DNA of 64,000 bases from Dehalococcoidia bacterium (GCA_963664365.1 OY761144.1:1513596-1577595), one strand, 5' to 3'; shown: positions 2,907 through 58,148, counted from the stretch's first letter. The notes: generated from the letters alone by a model not told the origin. A program made the numbers and translations.

Positions 2907-3797
2907 ATGTTCAGACGCATTTCAGTATTCGGGCTTGCCGCCGGTATTGTGGGCCTGTCTGCCTGCGGGACCACTGACCCTGAGGCTCCGTCCCCAGAGC
3001 CTACGTCGCCGCCCGCGCTAGTCCAGGTTGTCCCGACAGCTACTCCGACCGTGCCGCCGCCTACGACACCGCCTGCCACGCCGACCAGCGCGCCCACACC
3101 CACGACACCACCTGCAACTGCTACCGGCGCACCCGCCCCGACAACACCGCCTGCAACTGCCACCGGCGCGCCCGCGCCCACGACACCGCCTGCCACTGCT
3201 ACCGGCGTACCTGCGCCCACGACACCGCCTGCCACGGCGACCGCAGTGCCCGCTCCGACGACACCACCGCCTACGGCGACCACAGCGCCCACTCCGACGA
3301 CGCCACCGCCCACGCCCACGACACCGCCTACGCCAACCGCTGTCGCCGTGAAAATCGGCAGCAATGTGGGCGAGCGTGTCCCTGACTTCGACATGGCCGT
3401 CACCGGCGGCGCGACTGTCACGGCGGTCAGCCTGATAGAGGTCGGTCGTCCGACGTTCCTGTTCTTCCACTCATCCACTTGACCGGTCTGTCGCTCTGAG
3501 TTGCAGAGCCTGAAGGGAATCTACCCCGAGTTCGCCGGCAGCGTCGACTTCTACGCCGTCAACGTCAACCCGATTGATGACCTCGACGACTTCACTGAAC
3601 ACGGCAAGCAGCGAGGATACCCTTGGCCGATGGCCCAGCCCGGCGAAGGGATGCTCAAGAGCTTCGATGTTACGTACCAATCTACAAAGGTGGCCTTCGG
3701 CGCGGACGGCGTAATTGTGTACCGGGCCGGGTTCAATGGAGGAAACGCCGAGGAGTGGCGGGAACTGTTCAGGCAGCTAGCGTCAGGGGCCAGCTAG
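2907..3797 (+). CDS. lipoprotein with Pro/Thr-rich linker and TlpA/ResA-like thioredoxin-fold domain; in-frame UGA (3480-3482) read as candidate selenocysteine (T-U-P-V-C)
   Basis: ATG at 2907 with GAGCGAGG upstream. Signal peptide plus lipobox VGLSAC. ORFs 2703..3482 and 3501..3797 share one frame. The junction FLFFHSST-U-PVCRSELQSLKGIYPEF matches the FWxTWCxPCrxE motif of thiol-disulfide oxidoreductases. Confidence 0.65.
3033..3340 (+). repeat. coding low-complexity tandem repeat (PTTPPATATGAPA-type Pro/Thr/Ala linker, units of about 33 nt)
   Basis: Near-identical units (ccgacaacaccgcctgcaactgccaccggcgc...) are visible in the sequence and the translation. Confidence 0.85.
3480..3510 (+). 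promoter_or_regulatory. UGA plus SECIS-like hairpin (stem 3493-3498/3504-3509, loop AGUUG)
   Basis: GCUCUG-AGUUG-CAGAGC begins 11 nt after the UGA. The apical loop starts 16 nt after the UGA and has G-U at loop positions 2-3. G3490-C3510 can pair across a 2-nt bulge. Confidence 0.5.
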
Positions 3798-5003: not shown

Positions 5004-5159
5004 TAGTCCTTCGATGGCGAAGTAGTTCAAAACCTCAGGATTCGGGCGGGGAGGGGACATGACCAAGGGGCGAGCGAGCCCGGTGAGTTTGAGGCGGTAT
5101 AGCGCTCCGTCTGCTAGGATATATCAGAAGTATTCCAACTCGAATGCTCGGAGACACTC

Positions 5160-5534
5160 GTGAACACTTATAGCGCCGTAGCCGAGGAGTTCGCCCGTAG
5201 GGTGGTAGCGAACCTGGGAGAGCAGGTCGAGTCCGTGATTCTGTACGGCTCGGTTGCCCGGGGCGATGCCGGCCCGGAGAGCGACATAGACATTCTGGTC
5301 GTCTGCCCTGGCGCCAAGTCTTGCTGGGACGCCGTCAGTGGCATTGCTGATGATATCGTTCACCAAAACGGGTACTCCTTGCTTGTCTCTGAGGTCTGCT
5401 ACAGTCGGGCAGATTTTCTGGAATTTAATCGCATCGGATCACCGTTCATCAAGAACGTACTGGATGAGGGCGTGCCGCTCCATGACAATGGAATCTTCTC
5501 AAGATCTCGCGACGAAATACTTGCAGTCGTCTGA
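5160..5534 (+). CDS. nucleotidyltransferase-domain protein (MNT-type antitoxin-like)
   Basis: 124 aa with a GTG start. ILYGSVARGDAGPESDIDILVV is a minimal nucleotidyltransferase motif. Confidence 0.8.
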   Translation: MNTYSAVAEEFARRVVANLGEQVESVILYGSVARGDAGPESDIDILVVCPGAKSCWDAVSGIADDIVHQNGYSLLVSEVCYSRADFLEFNRIGSPFIKNVLDEGVPLHDNGIFSRSRDEILAVV

Positions 5535-5880
5535 GCAAGCACTGAGCGACGCTGGCCTCCTTCTTCAGCATGACCGGCTCCAAGCCGCGGCGAATCGCGC
5601 CTACTACGCCATGTTCTATGCCGCGTTGGCGGCTCTGGCCCACATGGAAATTCAAAAACTCCCTCGAACCCATCGTGGCGCTCTCAGCCAGTTTGGGCAG
5701 CATTGCATCGTAAACGGGCCAATAGACCCCCGATTCGGGACATACTTGAGGCGAGCTCAAAACCTGCGACGGCAGAGCGATTACCAATTGAACGTGTCCT
5801 TTGCCGATGAGCAGGTTGCCGGTACAGTCCAAAACGCCCAGGCTTTCGTGGCGGAGATCAGGCGCGTAACTGGTCTATGA
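5482..5880 (+). CDS. HEPN-domain protein (toxin-like partner of the nucleotidyltransferase)
   Basis: AANRAYYAMFYAALAAL ... RRQSDYQ (the Rx4-6H region is degenerate). It overlaps the 3' end of the NT gene in another frame. The start was chosen at MTMESSQ and is uncertain. Confidence 0.7.
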   Translation: MTMESSQDLATKYLQSSEQALSDAGLLLQHDRLQAAANRAYYAMFYAALAALAHMEIQKLPRTHRGALSQFGQHCIVNGPIDPRFGTYLRRAQNLRRQSDYQLNVSFADEQVAGTVQNAQAFVAEIRRVTGL

Positions 5881-5895
5881 CCACGACTATTTAGC

Positions 5896-6693
5896 TCACC
5901 TCCGGCGGGTGCGGCCTTTTAGGGCCATCAGCGCGAGGGCGCCGCTGACGAGTCCGACGCCGGCTATGCAGACGAGGCCCCTCGCGAGAACCTCCGGCTC
6001 CCAGCCGACGCTGATCAGGGACCTGAGGGCTTCCAGCAGGTACGTTACCGGGTTGTAGGTCGCGACCGTCGATAGCCAGCCCGTCATGGCCTCCTTTGGG
6101 ACGAACACCGTGGTCATGAAGGCGAATGGGAAGAACAGCAGGAAGCTGGAGTTGACCGCCGCGGGGTTTCCGGTCTTGAGCGCGATCGCATAGGGAAATC
6201 CGGTGAACACGAGGCCCCACAGCCCGGACATCAGGATGAACACCAGCACGCCCAGCGGCCCCGACGCGAAGTTGACGCCCACGACGAATCCGAGTACTAC
6301 GACAGGAAGCGTCAGGGCAACGACAAGGGTAAAGTCCGCGACGGTCAGGCCGAGAAGCAGCGCTAGCCGATTGACGGGGGTCAGGGACAGCCGGTCAAAG
6401 TATCCTGTCTGGATGTCGGTCACGAGCGTCACGGCCCTGGAGATGCCGGTCACGGCGAATATGATCGCGACCGGAAGCTGGAACGCCTTGTAATCGACCC
6501 CCGGCATTCGCTCCGCCACGTCCTGCAGAGCGCCGACGTTTATGGCATAGAAGAAGACCGGGATCACCAGCGCCGGATAGACCGCTTCCGGATCTCGGGG
6601 GATACCGCGCAGCGCCCTTATAGCGACGGATATGACGTCGGTTATGAATCCGGCCTTTCGGGCTTTTATCTGTGCTGCCGCTATCTGAGTCAT
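5896..6693 (-). CDS. ABC-2 type transporter permease
   Basis: 265 aa with six predicted hydrophobic helices, directly downstream of an ABC ATPase. Confidence 0.8.
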   Translation of the reverse strand: MTQIAAAQIKARKAGFITDVISVAIRALRGIPRDPEAVYPALVIPVFFYAINVGALQDVAERMPGVDYKAFQLPVAIIFAVTGISRAVTLVTDIQTGYFDRLSLTPVNRLALLLGLTVADFTLVVALTLPVVVLGFVVGVNFASGPLGVLVFILMSGLWGLVFTGFPYAIALKTGNPAAVNSSFLLFFPFAFMTTVFVPKEAMTGWLSTVATYNPVTYLLEALRSLISVGWEPEVLARGLVCIAGVGLVSGALALMALKGRTRRR

Positions 6694-12027: not shown

Positions 12028-14475
12028 TTAAGCTTCAGTACCCCACACCCGGTCAATCGCATCCTGAATCTTCTGCTCGAAGCGAGTGATTAGCTCGCGG
12101 TTGGCGTTAATGAGAGCTTGTTCGGCTTCGATCTCGGCGACGATGCCTTGTTGTATTTCAAGAGAAGGCAGAGGTACCTCATGATTCTCAACAACCGTCT
12201 TTCGCATCGACGGTGGATGTGCGTCACTAGCCCAGGTTGACAGATCAAATCCTGAAAGGTAAGAGTAGAGATATTGAGGCAGAAGTTTGTCTAGATTGGA
12301 CACTATACCCATCACGTTGTTATCGTATGTGGATTCTCGACTTAGAATGCGTTTCTTGTTTGTAGCTATTGCAGCGCCGATTTTCGGAAAAATGACCGTT
12401 CCTTTCGGGAATGACTTCGCTTTGAGTTCAGCAAGCGTATCGTGAGATATAGTATTGTTCCAAGACAGTATCTCTATTTCGTTTCCGTCCAAGTTCATGT
12501 CGCTGACCTTGAGAAATGGAATTGCTTGGCTGACGTCCCCCTGATACCTAGTTGGAAAGCCGAATCCACTCTGAACTGAAGATATTTGTTTCACAGGGAC
12601 CATCGGCCACCCTGGATCAATAGTAATCTGGGGGTGGTAGTTGTCGATCACGGTTCGCGCTCCGTCGATGATCTTCTGGTAGCCCTCAATCTCAGCCACG
12701 ATCTCTTTTTGCACTTCCAGCGGCGGCAGGGGAATCTGGATACCCCTGAGATTCCGTTGGTTGAGCTTAGGGACAGTGACACCGGTAACGTACGAAGCAA
12801 GGTCCATTTGATTCAGGACTTCAATCAGATATCGGTCAATCAGCCTGTCACGCATAGGACGGATAACGTGCGCGTGGTTGTTGACCCAAACTTTGCCGTC
12901 AACAGGGAATGAACTTCTCTCTCTTGGTCCCCACTTTGCTCCATCTTCCCCCACCAGCACCAACGGCTCATCGAAAATGTAGTCATCAACATAATCGAGA
13001 ACCCCCGTCGCGCCGTAGTAGGGAAATGGCCCTGACTTCCTGTCGCTCTTGGTTATGGGCCTTCGTTGTTTATCCAAAATCTCCACAAGAGTATCCAGTG
13101 ACTCAGAAGGAAACTGTGCCGTGCGAGCGCTAATTTCCCGATACCGCTCTCCACTCAGATTATACTCACCATCCTCAGCGATCTTCGCCTTCGTCACAAC
13201 AACCGTCACATCTTCGTGAACCTTCGTGTCCTTCGTGGATGAAACAGACCTCAGATACTCCCGCACCGCTAGCGCTGTCCGCGGCAGGTCGTTCTCTGAG
13301 ATGGGGCGGCGCTGGTCGCCGAGGTCGAATCCGTCGTTTTCGACCTTGAAGAAGGCGATGCTATCGGTCTTCCTGGCGAGCGCTCTGTCCAGTATGAGGA
13401 TCGAGGTCTTGACGCCGGAGTAAGGCTTGAACACTCCGGCGGGCAGCGAGACGATGGCGACGAGATAGTTCTCGACCAGCATCTTGCGTAGATGCCTGTG
13501 GGCGTTCTGGCTCTGGAAGATGATTCCCTCGGGCACGATGATTCCGGCGCGGCCCGCCGGGTTCAAATGCTCGGCCATGTAGTCCACGAACAGCGCCTCG
13601 CTGCGCCGGGACTGAACGGAGAAGCGGTTGTGCGGACGGATGCCGCCCTTCGGAGACATGAACGGCGGGTTGGCGAGTATCACGTCGGCGAAGTCGTTCC
13701 AGCGGTCTTCGCTGGTGAGGGTGTCGTACTCGAATATGTGCGGATCGACGAAACCGTGCAGGTACATGTTCACGAGGGAGAGCCGCACCATGTCGGGCGA
13801 AATGTCGTAGCCCTGGAAGTTGTCGGCCAGCCGAGTCATGTCGTCGGGAGTCAGGACGCTGTTTCCCTCCCCGTCCCTGTTGGCGGCGAGGATGTGCTTG
13901 TATGAGGAGATGAGGAACCCGGCGGTGCCGCAGGCTGGGTCGAGTATCACCTCGTCCTTCTTCGGGTCGATAATCGAGACGATGAAGTCGATGATGTGGC
14001 GCGGGGTGCGGAATTGCCCGGCGTCTCCCTGCGAGCCGAGTACCGAGAGCAGGTACTCGAAGGCGTCGCCCAGCCGCTCGGAGTGGTCGTAGGTGAACTC
14101 GTCGATTACCTTGAGGAACGCTCGCAGGGTCTCAGGGTCGCGGTACGGCAGGAAGGCGTTGTTGAAGATGTCTCGGAAGAGAGGAGGAATGCCGGGGTTC
14201 TCGGGCATCCGAGTGATGGCCTCGGCGTAGAGGTTCAGCATCTCGTGTCCGCCGATTCCAGGGCGCATCAGCCTGGCCCATCCGTAGCGGGCGAACTCGC
14301 CGGCGAAGAAGGTGCGCTCCCCGCCAAGCTCTTCGGCCTGCGCGTCGATGTCGTCCATGAACTTGTAGATCAGGGCGATGGTGATCTGCTCGACCTGTGA
14401 CTTTGGGTCGGGCACCTTGCCGACGAGGATGTCGCGGGCGGTGTCTATGCGGCGTTTCGTTTCGGTGTCGAGCAT
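12028..14475 (-). CDS. type I restriction-modification methyltransferase fused to the specificity subunit (HsdM-HsdS fusion)
   Basis: 815 aa. HsdM N-domain, the FRTPRH and DPACGTAGFL motifs, and the catalytic NPPF (LANPPFMSPKG). The HsdM C-terminal YNLSGERY is followed by two target-recognition domains, each ended by a conserved helix (LPPLEVQKEIVAEIEGYQKIIDG and LPSLEIQQGIVAEIEAEQALINANRELI). Confidence 0.85.
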   Translation of the reverse strand: MLDTETKRRIDTARDILVGKVPDPKSQVEQITIALIYKFMDDIDAQAEELGGERTFFAGEFARYGWARLMRPGIGGHEMLNLYAEAITRMPENPGIPPLFRDIFNNAFLPYRDPETLRAFLKVIDEFTYDHSERLGDAFEYLLSVLGSQGDAGQFRTPRHIIDFIVSIIDPKKDEVILDPACGTAGFLISSYKHILAANRDGEGNSVLTPDDMTRLADNFQGYDISPDMVRLSLVNMYLHGFVDPHIFEYDTLTSEDRWNDFADVILANPPFMSPKGGIRPHNRFSVQSRRSEALFVDYMAEHLNPAGRAGIIVPEGIIFQSQNAHRHLRKMLVENYLVAIVSLPAGVFKPYSGVKTSILILDRALARKTDSIAFFKVENDGFDLGDQRRPISENDLPRTALAVREYLRSVSSTKDTKVHEDVTVVVTKAKIAEDGEYNLSGERYREISARTAQFPSESLDTLVEILDKQRRPITKSDRKSGPFPYYGATGVLDYVDDYIFDEPLVLVGEDGAKWGPRERSSFPVDGKVWVNNHAHVIRPMRDRLIDRYLIEVLNQMDLASYVTGVTVPKLNQRNLRGIQIPLPPLEVQKEIVAEIEGYQKIIDGARTVIDNYHPQITIDPGWPMVPVKQISSVQSGFGFPTRYQGDVSQAIPFLKVSDMNLDGNEIEILSWNNTISHDTLAELKAKSFPKGTVIFPKIGAAIATNKKRILSRESTYDNNVMGIVSNLDKLLPQYLYSYLSGFDLSTWASDAHPPSMRKTVVENHEVPLPSLEIQQGIVAEIEAEQALINANRELITRFEQKIQDAIDRVWGTEA

Positions 14476-14490
14476 GTCTGAACTGTGATT
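14476..14490. repeat. inverted copy of the 15-nt motif AATCACAGTTCAGAC, abutting the hsdM-S start codon
   Basis: gtctgaactgtgatt at 14476-14490 is the exact reverse complement of 14600-14614 and 15046-15060. Confidence 0.9.
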
Positions 14491-14599
14491 CCTCTGATTT
14501 TGGGATTTTCATGATTACTTGGCTGAATTCAGGTAGTCTTCTAAAGCAGTCTCTGGCATGGAGTCTAGCACATAATCACCTCAATCATTGAGTCACACG

Positions 14600-15060
14600 A
14601 ATCACAGTTCAGACAGAGGGTCGAGTCGACTTCTCTGTCTGAACTTGTTGTTGGCCACTCTATTGAATTCGAGGCTCTTTGCGCCGAAGTTGATGAGCAA
14701 GCCGACTTCGAGGTCGAACGCCTCCAGGTAGTTGATAGCCTGCGCCAAGTGAAGGGCTTCAAGCTTGCTGATTGCCTTCAGTTCGACAGAAACGACTCCC
14801 TCAACCAGAAAGTCAACTCTGCGAGTACCGATTTGCTGTTCCTTGTAAAAGATGGGCATCTCATGTTCACGGCCGAAAGATATTCCTTGGTCTGCCAATT
14901 CAATTGCTAATGCGCGCTGATAGATTACTTCCTGAAAGCCGCTGCCCAAAGTGGAATGCACCGTCATGGCGCATCCGATAATCCTTCCCGTCAACTGGGA
15001 GTGCTTGTACTCTCTCCTAATCACAGTCCATCATTCCATCAGATAAATCACAGTTCAGAC
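14600..15060 (-). repeat. GxxExxY gene cassette bounded by perfect 15-bp direct repeats (14600-14614 and 15046-15060)
   Basis: AATCACAGTTCAGAC is exact at both ends, 446 bp apart. One copy follows the hsdR stop codon and the other contains the GxxExxY stop codon. Confidence 0.8.
14602..15024 (-). CDS. GxxExxY-family protein (PD-(D/E)xK-like)
   Basis: 140 aa with a GTG start. LGSGFQEVIYQRAL (the GxxExxY motif) ... RVDFLVEGVVSVELKA. Confidence 0.85.
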   Translation of the reverse strand: MIRREYKHSQLTGRIIGCAMTVHSTLGSGFQEVIYQRALAIELADQGISFGREHEMPIFYKEQQIGTRRVDFLVEGVVSVELKAISKLEALHLAQAINYLEAFDLEVGLLINFGAKSLEFNRVANNKFRQRSRLDPLSEL

Positions 15061-15062
15061 TA

Positions 15063-17603
15063 TCACGCGGCGAATTGGTTTAGGGAGACGTAGTCCATGA
15101 TGTACTCGCGGACGAGGCTACGGTACCGCTGGGGCACGGCGCGGTAGTCATTGATGGAGAATCCGGGGTTTGTCGCGAGGGAGGCAAACTGGCGGGTGTC
15201 TATGATTCTCCTGACTTCCTCACTGGTTACGTAGGCCTTGAAGTACGTCTTGACGGCAGTGACATCCCGGGGACTGGGCGGCGCGTGGTCGGTGACGAAC
15301 TTGGCGAACTCCTCTTCCAGAAGCTCGTCTTTGGACTTGAACCCGGTAATCAGCCCCAGCGCGCGCTCGACGAACTCGCGAATTGTCACGCGGCGATCGA
15401 CGGACGTCGCGCTCCGCAGCCTTTCCAGGTTGTAGAAATCCTCCGGCTTGTCGAATATCTCGCTCCTGACATGGTCGCTGACGATGCCCCATTGCCCGGC
15501 CTCGGCGGCCGCCTTGATAATCTCGTCGTCCCGTACTTGGTCTGCGAACCTGTCGAACAGCATCCGGTCAACCTTCATGCCGGACGCTCCAACCTGCTCC
15601 TCGCTGATTTCGGCGAGAACGTCCGGCCCCAGGTATTCGTAGCCATGGACGGTGACCGGGCCAAAATCGACGCCCCCGTTGCTCGGCTCTCGCCGCTTCC
15701 GCGGTGGCAGCTTCAGAACCTGGTCGTAGTCGAACTCTTCCTCGAAGTACTCGCAGTTGCCGAAGAAGTCGAACAGCTTGAAGGTCGTCTTCTCTGCTGC
15801 GTCCACGTCTATGTTGGCATCGCGTCCGCGGAACTGGTCGAGGAAGTTGTGCTTTCGGGTGCCGCGCCCCTTGATCTGAACGAAGTCGGTCGGCGAGAAG
15901 ATTGGGCAGAACAGGCCGAGGTTCAGAATGTCGGTGCAGTCGTAGCCGGTGGTCATCATGCCGACGGTCACGCAGACGCGGGCCTTGCTGGTGCGGTACT
16001 CAGGCGAGGCGTTGCCGGAGCCGAGCAGGTTGTTGTTGGCGAAGTTGACGGTGAAGCGCTGGGCGTCGGGGATATGCGACGTGACCTGCACGGCGAAGTC
16101 GGACTGGTACTTGCCGGGGAACTTGGCGTCCGCGATCTCGTTGAGAACCTGAGTCAGTTTGGCCGCGTGGTTCTGGCTGACGGCGAACACTATGGACTTT
16201 CCGATCTCCCCGCTTATCGGATCGCGCAGCGCGTTCTCAATGAACGTCCGGCAGAACAGCTTATTGGTAGCCTCTGAGAAGAAATCGCGCTCGAAGTCGC
16301 GCTTCTTAAACGCCTCCTCCTGGTACTCGCCCGCGTCGTCGGTGAACGACACGATGAAACCCTTGTCAGCAAGAAGCTGCGTTGTCACGTCAGTGCGTGC
16401 ATCGACGAGGGTTGGGCTGATGAGATACCCGTCTCGCACGCCATCGATGAGCGAGTACCGGTAGGTAGGTTCTCCGCTCTCGCACCCGAAGGTGCGGTAG
16501 GTATCGAGCATGAGCCTGCGCTCGATCTCTCGCGGGTCACGGACATTCGGGCCGAGCGTACCCGTGCCTCTTAGGTAGTCGCGGGGAGTCGCCGTCAAGC
16601 CGAGCTTGTAGCCGACGAAGTAGTCGAAGACGGAACGCGCGTTGCCGCTTATGGAACGGTGGGCCTCGTCGGAGATCACGAGATCGAAGTCCGTAGGCGA
16701 AAATAGGGACTGGTACTTGTTGTTGAACAGCAGAGACTGGACGGTGGTGACGACTATCTCTGCATGGCGCCAGTCGTCGCGCCTCTCCTTGTAGATGACG
16801 GTATCGAAATCGTTGGAGAGGTAGTCGTTGAAGGCGCGGTCCGCTTGGCCTTCCAGTTCCAGCCTATCCACGAGGAACAGCGCCCGGCTCGCGTTGCCGG
16901 TTCTAAGGAACAGCTTGATCACGGCGGCGGCTACCAGCGTCTTTCCGGCGCCGGTAGCCATCTCGAACAGGAACCTGTCTCCGCCGTCCTGCACGGCCCG
17001 TTGAAGACTGCGGACGGCGCGAATCTGATAGTCCCGCAGGAATCTGAGGCCGTTGGCCCGAATGAATACCGGACGCTCCGCATCGTTCTTCCAGGCGGCC
17101 TCAGAGGCGTAACCGGGCCTCTGTGTGAGCGCGATATAGTCGTCGCCAACTTGCTCGTTGATTAGCCGTAAAGGGTTGGGCTTGACCTTGTCGTACCCGG
17201 TGACCGAGTCGGGAGACGGAAAGACGCTGATAATGTGCGGGTTGCCGCGTTCGAGGTCCCAGAAGTAATGAAGGTTGCCATTGGACAGGATGACGAATCG
17301 GCAGTTCTGCGATCTGGCGTACCTTCTGGCCTGTTCCTTGCCGGTCAGCGGGTTGTGGTCCTCAGACTTGGCTTCGAGCACGACGAGGGGAAATCCCCTG
17401 GAGTCGAGCAGCAGAAAGTCGACGAATCCCCTACCTGTCTTCTCGAAGTCCTCTCCGAGGGCGTCGAGGTCGTTACTGCTTATCTCGACGTGCTGTTCGA
17501 GTCGGATGTTGGCGGGCCGATCTCCTTCCGGGAAGAAGCGCCAGCCGCTCTTTTCGAGCAGCCGGTTGATCTTGATGCGCGCCGTCGCCTCGTTCATGCG
17601 CAT
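15063..17603 (-). CDS. hsdR: type I restriction enzyme R subunit (HsdR) with EcoEI-R-like C-terminal domain
   Basis: 846 aa. N-terminal nuclease-like region (FVDFLLLD...VVLEAK), helicase motif I MATGAGKT, DEAH box VISDEAHRS, motif VI QIKGRGTR. Confidence 0.9.
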   Translation of the reverse strand: MRMNEATARIKINRLLEKSGWRFFPEGDRPANIRLEQHVEISSNDLDALGEDFEKTGRGFVDFLLLDSRGFPLVVLEAKSEDHNPLTGKEQARRYARSQNCRFVILSNGNLHYFWDLERGNPHIISVFPSPDSVTGYDKVKPNPLRLINEQVGDDYIALTQRPGYASEAAWKNDAERPVFIRANGLRFLRDYQIRAVRSLQRAVQDGGDRFLFEMATGAGKTLVAAAVIKLFLRTGNASRALFLVDRLELEGQADRAFNDYLSNDFDTVIYKERRDDWRHAEIVVTTVQSLLFNNKYQSLFSPTDFDLVISDEAHRSISGNARSVFDYFVGYKLGLTATPRDYLRGTGTLGPNVRDPREIERRLMLDTYRTFGCESGEPTYRYSLIDGVRDGYLISPTLVDARTDVTTQLLADKGFIVSFTDDAGEYQEEAFKKRDFERDFFSEATNKLFCRTFIENALRDPISGEIGKSIVFAVSQNHAAKLTQVLNEIADAKFPGKYQSDFAVQVTSHIPDAQRFTVNFANNNLLGSGNASPEYRTSKARVCVTVGMMTTGYDCTDILNLGLFCPIFSPTDFVQIKGRGTRKHNFLDQFRGRDANIDVDAAEKTTFKLFDFFGNCEYFEEEFDYDQVLKLPPRKRREPSNGGVDFGPVTVHGYEYLGPDVLAEISEEQVGASGMKVDRMLFDRFADQVRDDEIIKAAAEAGQWGIVSDHVRSEIFDKPEDFYNLERLRSATSVDRRVTIREFVERALGLITGFKSKDELLEEEFAKFVTDHAPPSPRDVTAVKTYFKAYVTSEEVRRIIDTRQFASLATNPGFSINDYRAVPQRYRSLVREYIMDYVSLNQFAA

Positions 17604-22063: not shown

Positions 22064-23527
22064 CTACCCCCGCTTGTGGAAGAAGACTACGTCGTCGGCG
22101 AAGGGCTTGTCGTAGTCTTCCGACCCGGCGAGTCCTATCTGTCCCTTGCCGGTGACTTTGTTCTTCGTGCCGTCCATTCGGGGATCGACGTACCTGTCGT
22201 ACCATGTTTCCAGGTCGGCCCTTAGCGACGCGATGCGCTCCTCGTGATTGGGGTCGTCCACAAGGTTTCGGGTCTCGAATGGGTCGTTGGCTAGGTCGTA
22301 CAGTTCGTTGGGGCCGTTGGGGTAGCGGTGGACGTACTTCCAATTGTGGGTGCGGATCATGCGAGTGGGCCCGTATTCGTCGAGGACGAATACGGGCGTG
22401 TCGTCCGACATGGACTCGCCTCGCAGGACGGGGGAGAAGTCTCTGCCTGGGAGCGGTTGGTCGGAATTCGCCTCCAGGCCGACGTATCCGAGCAAGGTCG
22501 GCATGAAGTCGTACTGGCTGAGCAGCTTTTCGCAGACCAAGTCCTGGGGAACGTGGCCCGGCCTCGAGACCAGCATCGGAACCTTGACAGAGGTGTCGAA
22601 CATGTTGGGAGGGTAGGTGCCGTTGCCCTTGCCCCAGATTCCATGATGACCCATGTTCATGCCGTTGTCGGAGTTGAACACCACCAGCGTGTTCTCCCTG
22701 AGTCCGTTCTGCTCCAGCCAGTCCAGCATCCTGCCGATGTTGCGGTCCATCTCCTCGACGGCGGTGAAGTAGCCGCTCAGCGCCTCTCGGCGGTTCTCGG
22801 GGGTGTCGCCGAGCGATCCGGCGGACCCCTCCTTGGCCAACTGGTTGATGTGAATTTTCTCTTCAGATAGGGAGTGGAAAGCTGTGTTCGCGTAGTGGGC
22901 ATCGAATAAGTCTGCCGGGTGGTTTTCCCTGCTCCAGGGGGCGTGCGGCGCGGTGTAGTGGACATTTAGGGAGAACGGCGCGTCGGACTCAAGCTGCGTG
23001 TCCAGGAACTCAAGCGCGTGGTCCGTGATGATGTCGGTCACGTATCCGGCCGGCTCATAAGGCTGACCGTTCTCGAACATTAACGCTCGGTAGTAGAGTC
23101 CGCCGCCCCTGGCATGGACGTTCCAGTAGTCGAATCCGAGCTGGGGGAGGCCGGAGCTGCCCAGGTGCCACTTGCCGCTAAGTCCGCAGTCGTAGCCGTT
23201 CTCGGCGAGCGCGTGGACATAAGACCTGCGTCCGGCGAGATACTCGATCTCGAGGTCGTCCTCGGGCAGGAGCTTAGAATTGCCGGCTCGCAGAAAGTCT
23301 TGGACGCCGTGCTGGGACGGGATCTGGCCCGTGAGGATCGAGGCCCTGGCCGGAGAGCAAACGGGCGAGGCGCAGAAGAAGTTTTCAAAGCGGATGCCCG
23401 TTGCGGCGAGACGGTCGAGATTGGGTGTAGTTAGCTCGTCGTTGCCGGCGCAGCCCATGGCCCAGGCGCCCTGGTCGTCGCTGAGAATGAAGAGTATGTT
23501 GGGTGTTCGGGTGTCTCTGCTTGCCAT
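22064..23527 (-). CDS. sulfatase (Cys-type, formylglycine-dependent)
   Basis: 487 aa. NILFILSDDQG and the CSPARASILTG (CxPxR) motif. Confidence 0.9.
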   Translation of the reverse strand: MASRDTRTPNILFILSDDQGAWAMGCAGNDELTTPNLDRLAATGIRFENFFCASPVCSPARASILTGQIPSQHGVQDFLRAGNSKLLPEDDLEIEYLAGRRSYVHALAENGYDCGLSGKWHLGSSGLPQLGFDYWNVHARGGGLYYRALMFENGQPYEPAGYVTDIITDHALEFLDTQLESDAPFSLNVHYTAPHAPWSRENHPADLFDAHYANTAFHSLSEEKIHINQLAKEGSAGSLGDTPENRREALSGYFTAVEEMDRNIGRMLDWLEQNGLRENTLVVFNSDNGMNMGHHGIWGKGNGTYPPNMFDTSVKVPMLVSRPGHVPQDLVCEKLLSQYDFMPTLLGYVGLEANSDQPLPGRDFSPVLRGESMSDDTPVFVLDEYGPTRMIRTHNWKYVHRYPNGPNELYDLANDPFETRNLVDDPNHEERIASLRADLETWYDRYVDPRMDGTKNKVTGKGQIGLAGSEDYDKPFADDVVFFHKRG

Positions 23528-48868: not shown

Positions 48869-49025
48869 GTCAGCAGCGTTGCCCTTGTTGTACACAGTGA
48901 ACGCCAATACAATGTACACTGACGGAAAGACGCCGAGAGGTATAGAACAACCATGTACCGACTAACGGACAAGATATACGGCTGCCTCATGGGCGGGCTG
49001 ATCGGCGACGCGATGGGCGCTCCCA

Positions 49026-50636
49026 TTGGCAATTGAGTTGACGAAGAGAGTTTACATACTGCCGACCTTGATCGCGCTCGTCGCGGTCTGGGTTTCCTGC
49101 GGCGGCGGAACGTCTGAGCAGCCGACTCCGACGGCCACGCCGCAGGTGATCGTCCGAGTTCCCGCAACTCCGACGCCGATGTTGGCGCTGGCGCCGATCC
49201 AAACTATGCCTCCGATTGAGACTCCGACGCCTATCCCAACGCCTACCGAAGTGCCGACGCCGGAGCCGACGCCCACTCCGCGCCCCTACGACTCGGCGAC
49301 TGTGATGTACGACCTGACGCCTCCGTTCGCCGCGGGGTCGGCCCAACTGCTGAGCGTTCTCCAAGAGATCCGGGACAACGACGACAAGTCGCTCGTGCCC
49401 GTGCTGGTGGAGATACTGCGCTTCGTGCCGACGCGTGAGCTGCTGGAGGGCACAGGCGAAACTCTCCGCGCCCTGAGCGGGCAATCCATCGAAGATTTCG
49501 CCTGGGACAAGTGGATGGAGTGGCTGGGCCGGAACCTCGCCGACTACCAGCCGCCGTCGGAGTACCCGGCGTGGAAGGCGGAGATGTACGGCAAGCTGCA
49601 TCCTCGGTTCGAGGTCTTCTTGGAGCCGGCGAGCGAGTATTCGAGAATCGACCCGACTGAAATCGTATGGGGCGGCGTCCCGCCCGACGGAATCCCCGAC
49701 CTGGCCAATCCGCAATTCCTCGCGCCGGACGAGGCGGACTACATGCTGCCGGACGACAGGGTATTTGGCGTGGAGGTCAACGGCGACGTCAGGGCGTACC
49801 CGCTGCGCATAGTCAACGCGCACGAGATGGTCAACGACACGGTCGGCGGCGAGCCGATCAGCCTGATGTGGTGAACGCTCTGCGGGACCGGAATCGTGTA
49901 TTCCGCCAAGATAGACGGGGAACCGACCACATTCGGGACGTCCGGCTTCCTCTATCGCTCCAACAAGCTGATGTACGACCGCAAGACGAATTCGCTTTGG
50001 AGTTCGCTCGTCGGCAGGCCGGTGATAGGCGAGTTGGCGCAGCGGGACGACCTGGTCCTCGACTTCTTCCCGGTGTCTCTGACGACGTGGGCGGAGTGGC
50101 TGGCAGAGCATCCGGATACGAGCGTTCTCTCGGACCGGACTCAATACTACCCACCCCAGTTCTACGGGCCGGAGTCCAGCCCGCAGTCGATCTACTTCGC
50201 GTACCGAGAACACCCGGGAACGATGTTCCCGGTGTGGAACCAGGATGACCGCCTGGAGGTCAAGGACGAGGTTTTGGGTGTAATAGTGGACGGCGTAAAG
50301 AAGGCTTATCCCGTGAAGCTGTTCCAAGAAGAGCGGCTGATCAACGACGCGGTCGGCGGCGCCAACATCGTTCTGGTCGCCTCCGGCGCTCTGTCCGACG
50401 GCCGCGTGTTCGATCGCGGCGACGTGACTTTCGAGAGCGTCGATGTCGGCTCAGACGGCGTCATCCAATCGGTGATAGACGCGGACGGCAACTCTTGGCA
50501 AATCGAGGAGGCGGGCCTGACCAACGCCGACAACGACACCGTCCTGCCCAGAATCCCGACGCTGATCTACTTCTGGTTCGGATGGTACGCCTTCCACCCG
50601 GACACTCTGCTGTACGAGGGCGAAAGCGCTCCCTAG
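49026..50636 (+). CDS. DUF3179-family lipoprotein with Pro/Thr linker; in-frame UGA (49872-49874) read as candidate selenocysteine (W-U-T-L-C)
   Basis: ORFs 49026..49874 and 49896..50636 share one frame. The joined sequence is VRAYPLRIVNAHEMVNDTVGGEPISLMW-U-TLCGTGIVYSAKIDGEPTTFGTSGFLYRSNKLMYDRKTNSLWSS. This matches the DUF3179 core as I recall it (..TYCPLCGSG..FGvSGlLy.SN.vMyDr.T.SlWsQ), with UGA at the first Cys. Lipobox VWVSC. The start codon (TTG) is uncertain. Confidence 0.65.
49872..49907 (+). promoter_or_regulatory. UGA plus SECIS-like hairpin (stem 49889-49894/49900-49905, loop CGUGU)
   Basis: CGGAAU-CGUGU-AUUCCG. G49885/G49886 can pair with C49907/C49906 across a 2-nt bulge. The architecture matches the hairpin at 3490-3510, and the loop starts 20 nt after the UGA. 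Confidence 0.5.
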
Positions 50637-51999: not shown

Positions 52000-52974
52000 G
52001 TGCCAAACGCCTGCTGTGCGCCCTCAGGCGGCCATGGTCGCCGTCGCTCGGCCTTCCGGTCGAGCCGAGCGGATTCGCGCGTCCCCATAGTCGGCGCCAA
52101 GAGACGGGACAGCCCTCCCAAGGGAATGGCGCACATCCCCGGCGGCAAGTTCCTAATGGGAACCGAAGACCGCTCCGGTTTTCCGGCGGACGGCGAGGGG
52201 CCTACGCGAGAGGTAGAGGTGTCGCCGTTCTTCATCGACGAGACGGCGGTGACTAACGCTGAATTCGGCAGATTCGTCAGGTCTACCCGATACAGGACGG
52301 AGGCCGAACGCTATGGCTGGTCTTTCGTCTTCCACCTGTTCATCTCCAAGAAGAACAGGCGCGAGGTTACTCAGGCAGTCGCGGAAGCGCCGTGGTGGCG
52401 GAGGGTGGAAGGCGCAAGCTGGCGGCGGCCCAACGGTCCGGGGTCCGGTATCGGGCGGCTGATGGACCATCCCGTCGTTCACGTGTCTTGGAACGACGCG
52501 ATGGCCTACTGCCGCTGGGCGGGCAGGCGGCTTCCCACCGAGGCCGAATGGGAGATGGCGGCTCGCGGCGGACTGGTCGGCATGACCTACCCCTGGGGCA
52601 ACGAACTAACCCCCGACGGCAGGCACATGTGCAATATCTGGCAGGGGGATTTCCCGGACGTCAACACTATGGAAGACGGGTTCGTGGGCACGGCGCCGGC
52701 AAGGCGCTTCGATCCGAACGGCTTCGGACTCTACAACGTCGCCGGGAACGTCTGGGAGTGGCAGGCCGACTGGTTCAGCCCCACGTTCCACCGCGACGGC
52801 CCCCGCGTGAACCCGGTCGGGCCGCCGTCGGGCGCCAGCCGCGTCATCAGGGGCGGGTCGTACCTCTGCCACCATTCGTACTGCAACCGATACCGCGTCG
52901 CCGCTCGCAGCGCGAACACGCCGGACAGTTCGACGGGGAACATGGGGTTCCGGTGCGTTGCGGACTTTGCCTGA
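52000..52974 (+). CDS. formylglycine-generating enzyme (FGE/SUMF1 family)
   Basis: IPGGKFLMGT..., FFIDETAVTNAEF, HPVVHVSWNDAMAYCRWAG, RVIRGGSYLCHHSYCNRYRVAARS. The start could be the GTG at 52000 or the ATG at 52126. Confidence 0.9.
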   Translation: MPNACCAPSGGHGRRRSAFRSSRADSRVPIVGAKRRDSPPKGMAHIPGGKFLMGTEDRSGFPADGEGPTREVEVSPFFIDETAVTNAEFGRFVRSTRYRTEAERYGWSFVFHLFISKKNRREVTQAVAEAPWWRRVEGASWRRPNGPGSGIGRLMDHPVVHVSWNDAMAYCRWAGRRLPTEAEWEMAARGGLVGMTYPWGNELTPDGRHMCNIWQGDFPDVNTMEDGFVGTAPARRFDPNGFGLYNVAGNVWEWQADWFSPTFHRDGPRVNPVGPPSGASRVIRGGSYLCHHSYCNRYRVAARSANTPDSSTGNMGFRCVADFA

Positions 52975-53007
52975 TTATCGTTTCAACACCCTTTCTAGGA
53001 GGAGACC

Positions 53008-54504
53008 ATGCCCGAACGACCGAACGTAGTCGTCATCCTGAGCGACCAGCAGCGCTGGGACACGTTGGCCTGCTACGGCAACGACTGGATACAGACCCCG
53101 CGCCTGAACCGACTCGCCGAAGATAGCGCGGTCTTCGAGGCCGCCTACGTTACGCAGCCGGTGTGCGTTCCGGCGCGCGCCTCGATAATGACCGGACTCT
53201 ATCCCCACTCGGCGGGGCCCGTGGTCAACAAGATGAACCTCGACCCCAGCATCCCGGTCCTGCCTGAGATGATCTCGGACGACTACACCTGCGGATACCT
53301 CGGCAAGTGGCACCTGGGCGACGACGTGATACGTCAGCGCGGCTACCACGAGTGGGTCAGCGCGGAGGACGGACACCGCGCGCAGTACACGCGCCGGGAG
53401 CATCTGCGCGTGATGAGCGACTACTGGCATTATCTGCGGGAGCAGGGCTACGAGCCCAAGACGCAAGCGAGCGGAGCGATGATATTCGACTCTTGGGAAC
53501 GGGCGCTGATGCCCGAGGAGTGCCAGATGGCGTCGTTCCTGGGACGTCGGGCGGCGGACTTCATCCGGCGCAACGCGGACGGGCCGTTCGTTATGTACGT
53601 CAGTACCTTCGAGCCTCACCCTCCGTTCTACGGACCTCTCAACGACCTGTACGATCCGGCCCAAATCCCCACAGGCCCGGCCTTCCTCCGGCGGCCTGAA
53701 GGGCACTCGCTCGTCAACCGCGTCCGCTCCGACTACTACACCAACTGGCTGGGGAGCGACGTTCCTCCGCCGGAGGGGGAGTACGTGACCTCGTCCGGCG
53801 CGGCCGCGCTCGGCAATGACGTCACGACCGAGGACGGCTGGCGCACGCTGCGCGCCCGATACATGGCAAACATAACCCTCGTGGACAGTATGGTCGGGAT
53901 GATCGTGGACGCGCTCGACGAGGCCGGCGTCTCGGACAACACCGCCATCGTATTCTCCAGCGAGCATGGGGACATGGCCGGCGATCACGGGATGCTGGAA
54001 AAGCGGGCTTTCTACGAGGAGGCTTCCCGCGTGCCGTTGCTGATGCGCGTCCCGTGGATTTCGGGGAGCGCCCGCGCGGTCGAGGGCAGCGTCGGTCACA
54101 TCGACCTAATACCGACGCTGCTGGACCTCATGGGCGAGGATTCGCCTGGGCGCCTGCAAGGCAAGAGCCTCGTTCCCGTGCTGAAGGGTGACGCAGACCT
54201 CAGCGACAACGAAGTTTTCATCCAGTGGAACGGCATCAGCCCGGACATGGAAGACCGCGCTCTCGGCTGGCCGCAGATCAACCGGATGCTCAACAACGCT
54301 TGGCGGTCAGTGGTGGTCGATAGGTGGAAGTTGAACCTGTGCGCGGGCGACCAGTGCGAATTGTTCGACCTGCACTCAGACCCGCACGAGATGATCAACC
54401 TGTTCGACGATCCCAAGCAGCGAGACCGCGTCCGAGACATGGCCGCCCGAATACGCTCCTGGCAGGTCCGAACCGGAGACACGGCGCCGCTGCCCAGCGT
54501 ATGA
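53008..54504 (+). CDS. sulfatase (Cys-type)
   Basis: 498 aa. [13 protein letters not shown] and the [11 protein letters not shown] (CxPxR) motif. Confidence 0.9.
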
Positions 54505-57500
54505 CGCGACTTCTTGACATACGGATTCTGACGCGGGCCGCGCTCGGCGCGATACTGGCGCTGTGCCTGCTGTCGGCGGCTTGTGATGATTCCCCGGAGC
54601 CGTCGCCTACGGCCACGCCGGCAGCGGTGGTCGTGGCGGTCCCGACAGCTACGTCCGAGCCGACCAATACGCCTACGCCAACTCCGACTGCCACAGCGAC
54701 GCCTGCGCCGACTCGCACGCCAACTCCTACGCCGACCGTCACGCCAACTCCTACGCCGACTGTCACACCCACTCCTACGCCAACTGTTACGCCTACGTCC
54801 GCGCCGACCGACACACCCACGCCTACGCCGACCATCACGCCTATACCGACGCCGACCATCACGCCAACGTCTGCGCCGACTGTCACGCCTACGCCTGTGC
54901 CGACCGACACACCTACGCCAACGCCGACTATCACGCCTACGCCTGTGCCGACCGATACACCCACGCCGACGCCGACTGTCACGCCTACGCCTACTCCCAC
55001 TTACACCGCGACGCCTACCGCCACTTACACGCCGACGCCTACTCCCACATACACCCCGACGCCTACCCCTACTTACACCCCGACGCCTACTCCCACTCAC
55101 ACCCCGACGCCCGTGCCGCCCCAGCCGGGGGAGTCGCTGTGGAGTTCAGCTATAACCATGGGGTGGAGCAGCAACCCCGTAGTCCGAGACGGAGTGGTGT
55201 ATCTGAGCGATTGGTGGGATGGCATCCTCCGCGCAATCGACTCTGAAACCGGCGCGGACCGGTGGACGTACCAATCCGCCGACCGCATCATACCCGGCGC
55301 CGCCGTTACGGAGAGCATTGTCGTCATCAGTGACACAAGCGGCAGCGTGACTGCTCTCGACTCCTCAACTGGGAAAACGGCGTGGAGCTTAGAAGGTTAT
55401 TCGGCTATCCAAACAGGAGTCTCTACCGACGGACTGCGGGCGTTCTTCGGAACCAGCGGCGGTCAGGTTTATGGTCTTGACCTGAGCGACGGCAGCGTCG
55501 TGTGGGAGATGGAGGTTGGCAGTTCGCCCTGGGCACGCGGAGTCGCCGTTGGGGACGGCATCGTCTATTTCGCTCACTCCGATGAACTGATTCGCGCGCT
55601 TAATGTCGAGACCGGAGAATCGATCTGGGAGTCAGCCTTAGACAGCGTGCCGTCCGGCCCAATGACGGTTCAGCACGGGATGGTCTTTGCCGGCTCTGTG
55701 TCTGGGATGGCCTATGCTTTCGACGCAGCGACCGGCGAGACGGTCTGGAGTTATAAGACGGACGGTTTCATAATGGGGCCTCCCGTCGCCTGGAACGACA
55801 CGGCATTCTTCGGATCCGACGACGGCTTCGTTTACGCGGTCGGACTGGACGACGGCGAATTGAAATGGCGCTTTCGCTCGGGCGGACACGTCCGCTCCAT
55901 GCTCGCCGCCGACGCGGGCGTGGTGTACTTCGGCGCCACGGACGGATTCGCCTACGCCTTGGACGCCGAGACCGGTTCGCTCGCGTGGAAATTCGGCGCC
56001 GGACAAGAAGTGGGCGGCAGAGTCGTCGTGGACGGCGGCATAGTGTACTTCCTGTCCTATACCAGCTACATCCACGCCCTCGTCGCGGGACTTCCCGAGG
56101 ATTTCGATCCGGACGCCCCCACTGTCTGCCCAACCGCCTCCGCCGGTCAACTACTGCTGGTGCTGACCGACAACAACCGCAGGGCCTCGGACACACCGGA
56201 AGCCGGCTCTCTCATCTGGAGTTTGGAGGGGAATCAGAACCTGCGGGAATGGATTCTCTTCGACGGCGACACAACATATCTCTCCGCCGGAGACGGCTCT
56301 CTCTACGCGGTTCACAGCTCCACCGAGCGCACGAAGTGGAGCTACGGCACGAGCGGACCGATTAACGCGGAACCCGCCATTTCGGGCGATCTGCTGGTGT
56401 TCGCCGACGCCGGCGGGTGCGTACACGCGGTGAACAGGGAGTCGGGGGAAGCAGTCTGGCAGACGGCGCTTGGGTCGCCTCCCAAAGGGAATGTCTCCGC
56501 AGACGGGGAGAGGGTGTACATGGCGCTCTCAAACGGAGACGTGCAGGCGCTCTATTTGGAAGACGGTTCCGCCGCATGGAACTTCGCGCCGAAAGGGTGG
56601 CCGCAAGGCGGCGTCACGCTTGCGGATGAGTCGGTGTACTTCGCCACAGACAGCGCGCTCGTTTACGCTCTCGAAGCTCCCACCGGCGATGAGTTATGGC
56701 AGGCGGAGACGCTGTATGGTTCAAGCACTGCGCCAATCATAACCGATGGTCTTGTGATTGCGGGGTCGCCGGACGAGCGCGTTTACGCCTTCGACGCCGA
56801 GACGGGGGCGCTGGCGTGGAACTACTGGGCATTGCAGCCCGTCAGGGCCTCCGTGGTCGAATCGGACGGAGACGTCTTCTTCGCGTCGGACAAGGGCTAC
56901 GCGTACTCGGTTGACGTCTTGACGGGGCGTTTGAACTGGCGGGCGACGACTACCAAAATGGTGTCTTCCGCGTCCGGCGCTACAGGCGGCCAGGAAGAGG
57001 TCTCGCCGGCGGTCGATGGCGGCTTGGCGTACGCCGTGTCGGACCAGGATGAGATTGTGGCGCTGGACGCCGAGAACGGGGCGGAAGTATGGAGGTTCGA
57101 CGCGCGCGCAGCCGTGACCTCGCTCGAAGCTGGTAACGAAAACGTGTATGCCTCTCTGTCCGACGGACGAATAATCGCGCTTGCGGGCGGATTCAGCGAG
57201 GATTACGAGCCTCCCGATCCACCTCTGCCATCCGAAGAGCCTGAGTTCGTCCCGCTCACGCCCCTGGAGATACGGGACGCCATCGAATTCCTAACCGAGG
57301 CGGACGAGAGACAGGTGCGGGTGGAAGCGCAAGTGACCACTACGGAGGGGAAATACTGGACGATCGTTGACCACTCCGACCAAGTCATCGGCGTCTTCGG
57401 CGCCGCATACTACCTCCTGACCGGAAGGAGCTACCAGCAGGACGGCATAGAGGCGCGGTATCCGACAAGGGCGGAAAACCTTGCACGGTACGGCGACAGG

Positions 57501-58148
57501 GCGCCGCACTACGGCGGCTTCTGCTGCGAGCAGACTGAGACGGGGCTCGTCTTCGTAGTGCGCGGCGAGTTCCCGCTCAAGTGGGCAGTCCGCGCTTCGG
57601 CCCACGAGGTCGGCCATGCGCTTCAACGGCTGCTCAACCCGGCGCAGATGCGCGCTGCCGGGCCGCTTGCAGGCGCGTTGTGGGAAGCTCAGGCAGGCTC
57701 ATTCGAAGGGGCCGTATTCCGCACCATAGGTGAGTACGCCGACCTAGAATCGGCGGCATTCCCCAACGATCAGTGGGCGCGGCAAGAGATCGACGCCCTT
57801 CGGCAGCGTATGCAAAACGCGCTCTCCGACGAGCCGCAAGGCCCGCAGGACAGGAGCAGCATCATAATCTGGCACGCGATTCTGCACGACCCGGACCTGG
57901 CCCACCTCAAGGAGGAACTCGACCGCGAGGGACGGCTGTCGGGCGCTTCATATCTCGAGCTGTACTACAAACTCGCCATGATCCCGCCGTCGCAGGTGAC
58001 CCCTTACGTGGAGGCGATTACGCCGGACACGCGCGCTGAGATCTCGAACGATCTGAACTACATCACCTCGATACTCATCAAGCGAATTGGGCGCGGACCT
58101 CATCCTGGATTCATCGCTCTCGTGGAGACGACGCTCCTCCTGCCGTGA
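54501..58148 (+). CDS. large lipoprotein: Pro/Thr linker, many PQQ-like (BamB-type) beta-propeller repeats, and a C-terminal domain with an HEVGH zinc-peptidase-like motif
   Basis: ATG at 54501 overlaps the sulfatase stop codon (ATGA). Lipobox LLSAAC. Repeated motifs of the G.VYA.D..TG...W type. [12 protein letters not shown] lies near residue 1030 of the mature ORF. Confidence 0.75.
54664..55120 (+). repeat. coding Pro/Thr low-complexity repeat ([10 protein letters not shown] / [10 protein letters not shown] units)
   Basis: Visible in the DNA and the translation. It generates long Arg-rich and Gly/Val-rich shadow ORFs on other frames. Confidence 0.9.

Follow-up and report, generated by a model that had tools for sequence, protein, structure and literature searches.

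A probable selenocysteine codon and a conserved coding-region hairpin in the gene of a putative DUF3179 lipoprotein of a SAR202-type Dehalococcoidia bacterium

The Locus and Its Gene Model

The DNA considered here is a stretch of 64,000 nucleotides (nt) from a Dehalococcoidia bacterium (GCA_963664365.1 OY761144.1:1513596-1577595), referred to below as the window, with positions counted from its first letter. It carries two open reading frames (ORFs), 49026..49874 (282 amino acids, aa) and 49896..50636 (246 aa), that lie in a common frame on the + strand with a single TGA at 49872-49874 between them. An initial inspection of the DNA alone, called here the sequence-only reading, had joined the two into one DUF3179-family lipoprotein in which UGA would stand for selenocysteine (Sec). 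Comparison with related proteins and genomes now makes it very probable that the UGA at 49872 is decoded as Sec, in conjunction with a conserved Sec insertion sequence (SECIS) inside the coding region of this lipoprotein gene.

Reading through the TGA yields the joined sequence ...GGEPISLMW-U-TLCGTGIVYSAKIDGEPTTFGTSGFLYRSNKLMYD..., and the segment around the codon, …ISLMW-U-TLCGTGIVYS… (peptide across the site: …ISLMW-U-TLCGTGIVYSAK), lies inside the DUF3179 domain. With U written as C, the product gives one continuous match to PF11376 (DUF3179) at aa 221-527, which covers the whole domain (profile positions 2-292 of 292; E=2.4e-74; 250.8 bits against a gathering cutoff of 27). This single match spans the TGA. 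The shared frame, the joined translation and the coordinates that had been proposed are correct. The family blocks FGTSG…SNK…YD…W are present in the window protein, which shows H-E (in NAHEM), U-T-L-C-G and then FGTSGFLYRSNKLMYD…W.

The N-terminus, as read from the translation, runs KR-hydrophobic-…VWVS-C25-GGG, and homologues have AVAC-G at the same place. Lipobox patterns are of the PROSITE PS51257 type, and the window N-terminus fits this pattern. The protein appears to be exported as a lipid-anchored lipoprotein, whose mature form would start with Cys25 and carry the lipid there. The helical domain located between the linker and DUF3179 (Table 1) has zero Pfam matches even at E<=10.

Table 1. 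Features of the DUF3179 gene and of the companion UGA gene in the window
Feature	Coordinates	Strand	Basis
Complete predicted selenoprotein gene (TTG start, Sec-UGA as codon 283, TAG stop, precursor of 536 aa)	49026..50636	+	ORFs, translation, one Pfam match across the UGA
Apparent signal peptide with lipobox …LIALVAVWVS-C25	49026..49100	+	Read off the translation; homologues with equivalent …AVACG…
Pro/Thr-rich low-complexity linker, ~aa 26-88	49101..49289	+	Translation; variable and gapped in homologue alignment
N-terminal helical domain (~125 aa), no Pfam family, …GDxSxVPV…LTGQ…WxxWxEWxG…	49290..49685	+	Conserved within clade (alignment); AlphaFold2 model of homologue
DUF3179 domain, aa 221-527, two homologous beta-rich repeats	49686..50606	+	PF11376; internal BLASTP; AlphaFold2
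In-frame UGA, predicted U283	49872..49874	+	Aligned with first Cys of C-T-L-C-G
U-T-L-C motif, U283…C286	49872..49883	+	Family-wide conservation
SECIS-type hairpin inside the coding sequence	49889..49905	+	Orthologue pairing, covariation, RNAalifold
Companion case: UGA 3480-3482 (T-U-P-V-C) in AhpC/TSA-redoxin-like lipoprotein gene 2907..3797	3480..3509	+	Sequence; Pfam AhpC-TSA E=2e-11

The UGA Codon and the Cysteine Motif of DUF3179

A search of a protein collection returned relatives of two kinds, full-length proteins of ~540 aa and many fragments of 243-246 aa. In an alignment of homologues (A1), the UGA column is occupied by the first Cys of C-T-L-C-G in every full-length protein but one, P0113, which has W. 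A family-wide sample of 144 diverse representatives (50%-identity clusters) covering the motif region extends the result: the first motif Cys is found in 138 of the 144 and the second in 128, the latter being replaced by Ser in 8 and by Thr in 6. The sequence-only reading had correctly placed the UGA at the first Cys of the family motif, but it had given that motif as C-P-L-C, a form present in 9/144 representatives; the most common form is C-T-L-C (111/144). A His-Glu pair located 16-17 residues before the motif is conserved to a similar degree (His in 144/146, Glu in 143/146).

The protein P0113 is a 442-aa database entry that reads AY-W-TLCGSGIVYS. Its Trp stands at the Sec column and is followed by the G-I-V-Y-S of the UGA forms, i.e., by the residues of the Sec-form hairpin codons. 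The Trp is probably a translation-table artefact of a gene caller that read UGA as Trp, which would hide a selenoprotein.

Public databases divide the locus into two genes, of which the first would encode an N-terminal lipoprotein of 282 aa that stops at the UGA and the second a 246-aa protein starting from GTG 49896. Such a start is indeed available 21 nt past the stop, and the many 243-246-aa fragments in the collection all begin with 'MYSAK…', at the GTG that was also chosen by the ORF listing in the window. This division, however, would break a single DUF3179 domain between two neighbouring strands of the same beta unit (AlphaFold2), and the downstream piece would have no signal peptide. 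Moreover, the Cys homologues are always a single protein of ~540 aa, and the 21 nt between the ORFs code in frame for the conserved T-L-C-G-x-G-I. Two separate genes are therefore extremely unlikely. The correct gene model is one 536-aa selenoprotein, a gene that public callers split in essentially every related genome.

Conservation of the UGA across Genomes

The contigs that encode three of the fragment proteins have the gene split alike, with TGA at the equivalent codon, and on one of these contigs the split gene is present twice, as a tandem pair. When one genome per species was scanned, 80 loci were obtained, nearly all of them from Dehalococcoidia, SAR202 or Chloroflexota metagenome-assembled genomes (MAGs), several at chromosome level. 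At the homologous sites with the motif (n=78, window included), the codon is TGA in 70 and TGC in 8. In an exact-pattern scan of metagenome contigs, 90 further ones carried the motif of UGA and hairpin; 'marine metagenome' is the title of a few records, the others bear accession-style names only. Judged by these sequences, the Sec form of DUF3179 predominates in SAR202-type Dehalococcoidia.

Several Dehalococcoidia genomes contain two or more UGA-containing DUF3179 genes, which either form a tandem or lie apart, and every one of these genes has a hairpin of its own. Multi-copy loci of this kind are L003:2137-5535, L004:~3000-6500, and the pair L057 and L059, which are located on one chromosome (OZ253584.1).

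A lone in-frame stop in a MAG-like sequence, in a gene that public callers split, looks at first like a sequencing or assembly error or like a fresh pseudogene, in which case the TGA would truly terminate a defunct gene. The comparative data effectively refute this explanation. Since the UGA is conserved over many independent assemblies (and recurs on the metagenome contigs), sequencing error and recent pseudogenisation, which the sequence-only reading had called unlikely on other grounds, are excluded. In addition, high GC3 (G+C content at third codon positions) and full-length Pfam coverage are maintained in both halves of the gene, and the hairpin is conserved only alongside the TGA. The probability left for an error or a dead gene is negligible.

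Elsewhere in the window, TGA serves as a genuine stop codon, and more often than any other: it ends 19 of the 38 Pfam-supported genes. It follows that UGA is not reassigned genome-wide and that the recoding must be local.

A Conserved Hairpin Downstream of the UGA

The candidate SECIS is 17 nt long and consists of a 6-bp stem (49889-49894/49900-49905, CGGAAU/AUUCCG) and a 5-nt loop (49895-49899, CGUGU). It begins 14 nt past the UGA, and its loop begins 20 nt past the UGA. Every UGA form (70/70 sites) has GGA AUC GUG UAU UCC, or a variant that preserves pairing, from nt 19 after the U of UGA. The eight Cys (TGC) forms use different codons, with only 52% of cells paired, and the hairpin is absent from them. 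The position, the 6-bp stem and the loop given in the sequence-only reading are retained.

Pairing and covariation were computed on 66 distinct orthologous sequences. The 6-bp stem is paired in 98.5% of cells, and RNAalifold returns the identical stem. Double changes occur at three of the six stem pairs. Two of these are seen in the same six sequences of a single clade, where G:C is replaced by C:G and A:U by G:C, and where A-I-G-Y-R stands in place of the peptide G-I-V-Y-S. The third is the closing C:G pair, which has become U:A nine times, A:U once and G:C once, over several lineages. G:U intermediates are found in the stem as well. The covariation score of the whole structure is 0.187 vs. 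0.093 in shuffles, and none of 500 shuffles reaches 0.187. When the 3′ partner is slid by 1-3 columns, so that relatedness is retained, 22-52% of cells are paired vs. 84% for the whole structure. The third codon positions of the five hairpin codons have an entropy of 0-0.34 bits; at the four-fold sites that flank them, the entropy is 1.2-1.8 bits. The loop is C-G-U-G-U in 60/66 sequences and C-G-G-G-U in 6/66, all of one clade. The pattern N-G-U-N-N suggested earlier therefore describes most of the orthologues but not that clade; the G at the second loop position (G25) is invariant.

The Zhang & Gladyshev consensus model for bacterial SECIS elements, which PMC13188914 summarises (section 5 and legend of Fig. 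2), requires a loop of 3-9 nt, an upper stem of 4-16 bp, a G within the first two nucleotides of the loop that is usually followed by G or U, a distance of 16-37 nt from the UGA to the apical loop, and a minimum free energy of <= -7.5 kcal/mol. The window hairpin lies within the geometric limits, its loop having 5 nt, its stem 6 bp and its spacing 20 nt; the second loop nucleotide is G, and U/G comes next.

How often such a structure follows a TGA by chance was calibrated in the window itself. Of 1874 TGA triplets, 25 (1.3%) have at 16-37 nt a 6-bp stem whose 5-nt loop reads N-G-[G/U]-N-N, whereas the loose SECIS model matches 18-19% of the triplets with 6 bp or about 66% with 4 bp. The tight architecture is uncommon, and a match to the loose model by itself would mean little. 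The tight stem-loop is present after both in-frame UGAs, those at 3480 and at 49872.

Strength of the Selenocysteine Reading

The Sec reading and its functional extension have several points against them. The presence of Sec at residue 283 is predicted, from comparison of nucleotide and protein sequences. SelA, SelB, SelD and tRNA-Sec were not found in the 64-kb window (Pfam on 38 ORFs, ARAGORN, Rfam), nor did ARAGORN find tRNA-Sec on 60 related loci. One apparent exception, a 'SelA' (PF03841) gene located 9.5 kb upstream of the orthologue in L001, was rejected: it encodes a 377-aa DgaE-family/selA_rel enzyme, which is not Sec machinery. Among NCBIfam models it matches TIGR01437 and NF047797 best, the score for TIGR00474 (selA) being 38-55 bits vs. 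a cutoff of 268, and no SelB or tRNA-Sec was found around the gene.

Further points concern the hairpin. Its energy is -5.1 kcal/mol for the 6-bp form and -6.3 kcal/mol with two lower G-C pairs, and both values are weaker than the -7.5 cutoff. A competing fold has -7.6 to -8.6 kcal/mol, and in context the hairpin has a pair probability of ~0.29. Single-sequence folding is no better than that of shuffles (z=+0.7 and -0.9). At two of the pairs, the covariation is confined to one clade and could be the outcome of a single event. The lower element of the original proposal did not stand: in the window, G49885-G49886 are able to pair with C49906-C49907 over a 2-nt 5′ bulge, but only 40.9% of orthologue cells are paired in this bulge-plus-G-C part, which is not conserved. 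As regards the protein, a sequence search found no relative in the PDB, and Foldseek returned no significant fold match.

Because the hairpin is weak in energy and its z-scores are unremarkable, its support is comparative, not thermodynamic. The residual doubt about Sec lies in the unseen machinery and in the weak hairpin energy.

These same two points are what could favour recoding of the UGA as something other than Sec, e.g., by a suppressor tRNA or by hairpin-stimulated near-cognate read-through that inserts Trp or Cys, in a genome devoid of Sec machinery; the W at the UGA column of P0113 could be added to them. Nevertheless, the codon replaces a near-invariant Cys of catalytic type, as in a classic Cys/Sec pair, the hairpin matches the bacterial SECIS geometry with a conserved loop G, and DUF3179 is already catalogued as Sec-containing. 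The W of P0113 is most simply the translation-table artefact mentioned above. As for the machinery, the support is indirect: a sponge-metagenome study lists three SAR202-related bins that have a single SelB (COG3276) each (PMC5649159, Table S4), and tRNASec species have been reported from Chloroflexi (PMC5389517). Non-Sec recoding is accordingly highly unlikely, and Sec remains the preferred reading of the UGA, with decoding that would be SelB-dependent and would proceed via the hairpin.

A 'SelA' pyridoxal-phosphate enzyme, as named by Pfam, is encoded near DUF3179 orthologues at L001:1-546 and L084:7684-8816. The automated 'seleniumtransferase' names (JGI) given to the SAR202 DgaE-family protein are probably wrong.

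Structure and Possible Function

The structure was considered in an AlphaFold2 model of the Cys homologue P0020, which has a predicted local distance difference test score (pLDDT) of 93.3 and a predicted template modelling score of 0.90. In this model, a helical N-terminal domain (helices at aa 10-113, pLDDT >90) is followed by two similar beta-rich units, and C-T-L-C is placed between two strands of one of them. The duplication inside DUF3179 can also be seen by BLASTP (repeat 1 vs. repeat 2, E=1e-10). The H-E pair and the C/U-x-x-C motif, H174-E175 and C191-x-x-C194 in P0020 numbering, are near-invariant and occur only in repeat 1.

At the level of domains, Foldseek gives hints of Rieske ferredoxins and NirD small subunits (2qpz, 3gce, 4aiv, 3c0d), with a probability of 0.72-0.80, target-normalised template modelling scores of 0.47-0.55, and E=0.2-0.45, values of E that are not significant. 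No NCBIfam model matches, and repeat 1 has no Rieske Pfam match even at E<=10. A likeness to Rieske proteins could presumably be read in the C/U-x-x-C that follows a beta strand, as the first cluster-binding loop does; this is a reading of the linear sequence, not a structural alignment. Unlike Rieske/NirD proteins, DUF3179 lacks the CxH…CxxH ligand set and shows no match at the sequence level. The resemblance suggested by the model can serve as a lead only.

Sec283 and Cys286, together with the adjacent His-Glu pair, are probably the active site of a large uncharacterised family, as their conservation suggests. A thiol/selenol redox or nucleophilic mechanism fits, because Sec replaces the first Cys, because the second Cys is Ser or Thr in some homologues, and because export as a lipoprotein is apparent. 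By analogy, a redox role of UxxC in DUF3179 seems reasonable. The chemistry and the substrate of the protein are what we infer.

The most probable course of events is the following. The one + strand gene 49026..50636 of this SAR202-type Dehalococcoidia bacterium would give rise to an extracytoplasmic, lipid-anchored DUF3179 protein. During translation, the 17-nt hairpin would act as a bacterial SECIS and recruit the SelB-GTP-Sec-tRNA(Sec) complex to the ribosome, so that Sec would be put in at residue 283 instead of termination. The near-invariant first Cys of CxxC would thereby be replaced, giving U-T-L-C. As in other UxxC selenoproteins, the nucleophilic attack may come from Sec283, with Cys286 resolving and a selenenylsulfide between the two. 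Both would act beside the near-invariant His and Glu of repeat 1. The reaction would be of a redox or thiol-dependent kind and take place at the outer face of the cytoplasmic membrane.

A wider proposal is tentative and rather doubtful. It would make DUF3179 an extracytoplasmic enzyme that contains, in duplicate, a beta module distantly like that of Rieske/NirD proteins. His-Glu, (Sec/Cys)-x-x-Cys and S-N-K…D would form its active site, and Sec would be the default in marine and sponge-associated SAR202 (about 90% of sites, often several copies per genome).

Relation to Known Selenoproteins

The literature was checked for Sec-containing DUF3179 members, as the sequence-only reading had advised. 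DUF3179 (PF11376, motif UxxC/T) is listed as a prokaryotic selenoprotein family in the reviews of Zhang et al. (PMC9312934, 2022; PMC13188914, 2026), and the novelty that had been implied for it does not hold. Both reviews cite Zhang & Gladyshev 2007 (PMC1976440), an analysis of the Olavius symbiont metagenome, which does not use the name DUF3179; the family presumably corresponds to one of the 'OS_HP' families of that paper. The searchable literature contained no description of the Dehalococcoidia/SAR202 forms, of their prevalence or of a SECIS consensus for them, and none of the architecture of a lipoprotein with a helical N-terminal domain. Neither the family nor its UxxC motif is new, and the SAR202 forms add details to a kind that has been catalogued.

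Like the catalogued DUF3179 selenoproteins, the window protein belongs to the same Pfam family, has Sec first in U-x-x-C, has abundant Cys homologues and has a downstream coding stem-loop; nothing fundamental sets it apart from them. With the bacterial SECIS of the E. coli fdhF type, the hairpin shares its location in the coding region after the UGA, a small loop with G2 followed by U/G, a 6-bp upper stem and the 20-nt spacing. It differs in being weaker (-6.3 vs. -7.5 kcal/mol) and in having no conserved lower stem or bulge. The UxxC selenoproteins of the thioredoxin fold (Prx-like and AhpC/TSA-like thiol:disulfide oxidoreductases), with the candidate at 2907..3797 among them, likewise have Sec at the position of the N-terminal nucleophile and homologues with Ser/Thr variants of the second Cys. 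In contrast to them, DUF3179 consists of a helical domain and two beta-rich repeats (AlphaFold2) and has no Pfam match to the thioredoxin family.

Companion Gene and Other Genes of the Window

The companion gene of Table 1 is a candidate for a second selenoprotein, as judged from its sequence. The hairpin after its UGA (3493-3509, GCUCUG-AGUUG-CAGAGC) has -8.8 kcal/mol and a pair probability of ~1.0, and its loop begins 16 nt past the UGA. The product is an apparent extracytoplasmic lipoprotein, as is the DUF3179 protein, and it contains a long, tandemly repeated Pro/Thr/Ala linker. Directly downstream lies a DDE_3 transposase ORF (3814-4455, - strand; Pfam E=1.1e-27).

No further credible UGA-interrupted gene was found in the window when all frames were read with TGA as sense. 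Other high-GC3 read-through candidates were rejected, being either antisense to Pfam-supported genes or neighbouring genes in the same frame, such as a pair at ~25165, whose upstream ORF may be TrpB, judging by its N-terminal sequence.

Just upstream of the DUF3179 gene, and overlapping its start, is a short + strand ORF (48953-49036, MYRLTDKIYGCLMGGLIGDAMGAPIGN*). It may resemble the N-terminus of an ADP-ribosylglycohydrolase and could be what is left of a gene. Around the DUF3179 gene, the order FGE-sulfatase-sulfatase-DAHP synthase is preserved in synteny with L001. The window has two sulfatases and an FGE-sulfatase maturase at 22064-23527 (- strand) and 52000-54504 (+ strand). A 1274-aa ORF at 54324-58148 (+ strand), with repeated PQQ_2/beta-propeller matches, begins inside the 3′ end of the sulfatase gene before it, so that translation probably starts at a more downstream site. 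The region 12028-17603 (- strand) encodes a restriction-modification pair of type I, composed of a fused N6_Mtase and Methylase_S protein (815 aa) and a ResIII/HSDR_N restriction subunit (846 aa).

Significance

Because DUF3179 and its UxxC motif were already catalogued, the present data do not change selenoprotein biology. The SECIS consensus is well supported and could be used for annotating SAR202-type genomes. If Sec is indeed the default in SAR202, part of the cell-surface redox chemistry of this abundant clade would be selenium-dependent. The SECIS would then also dictate the protein sequence of the next beta strand, which is G-I-V-Y-S, or A-I-G-Y-R where the stem has changed.

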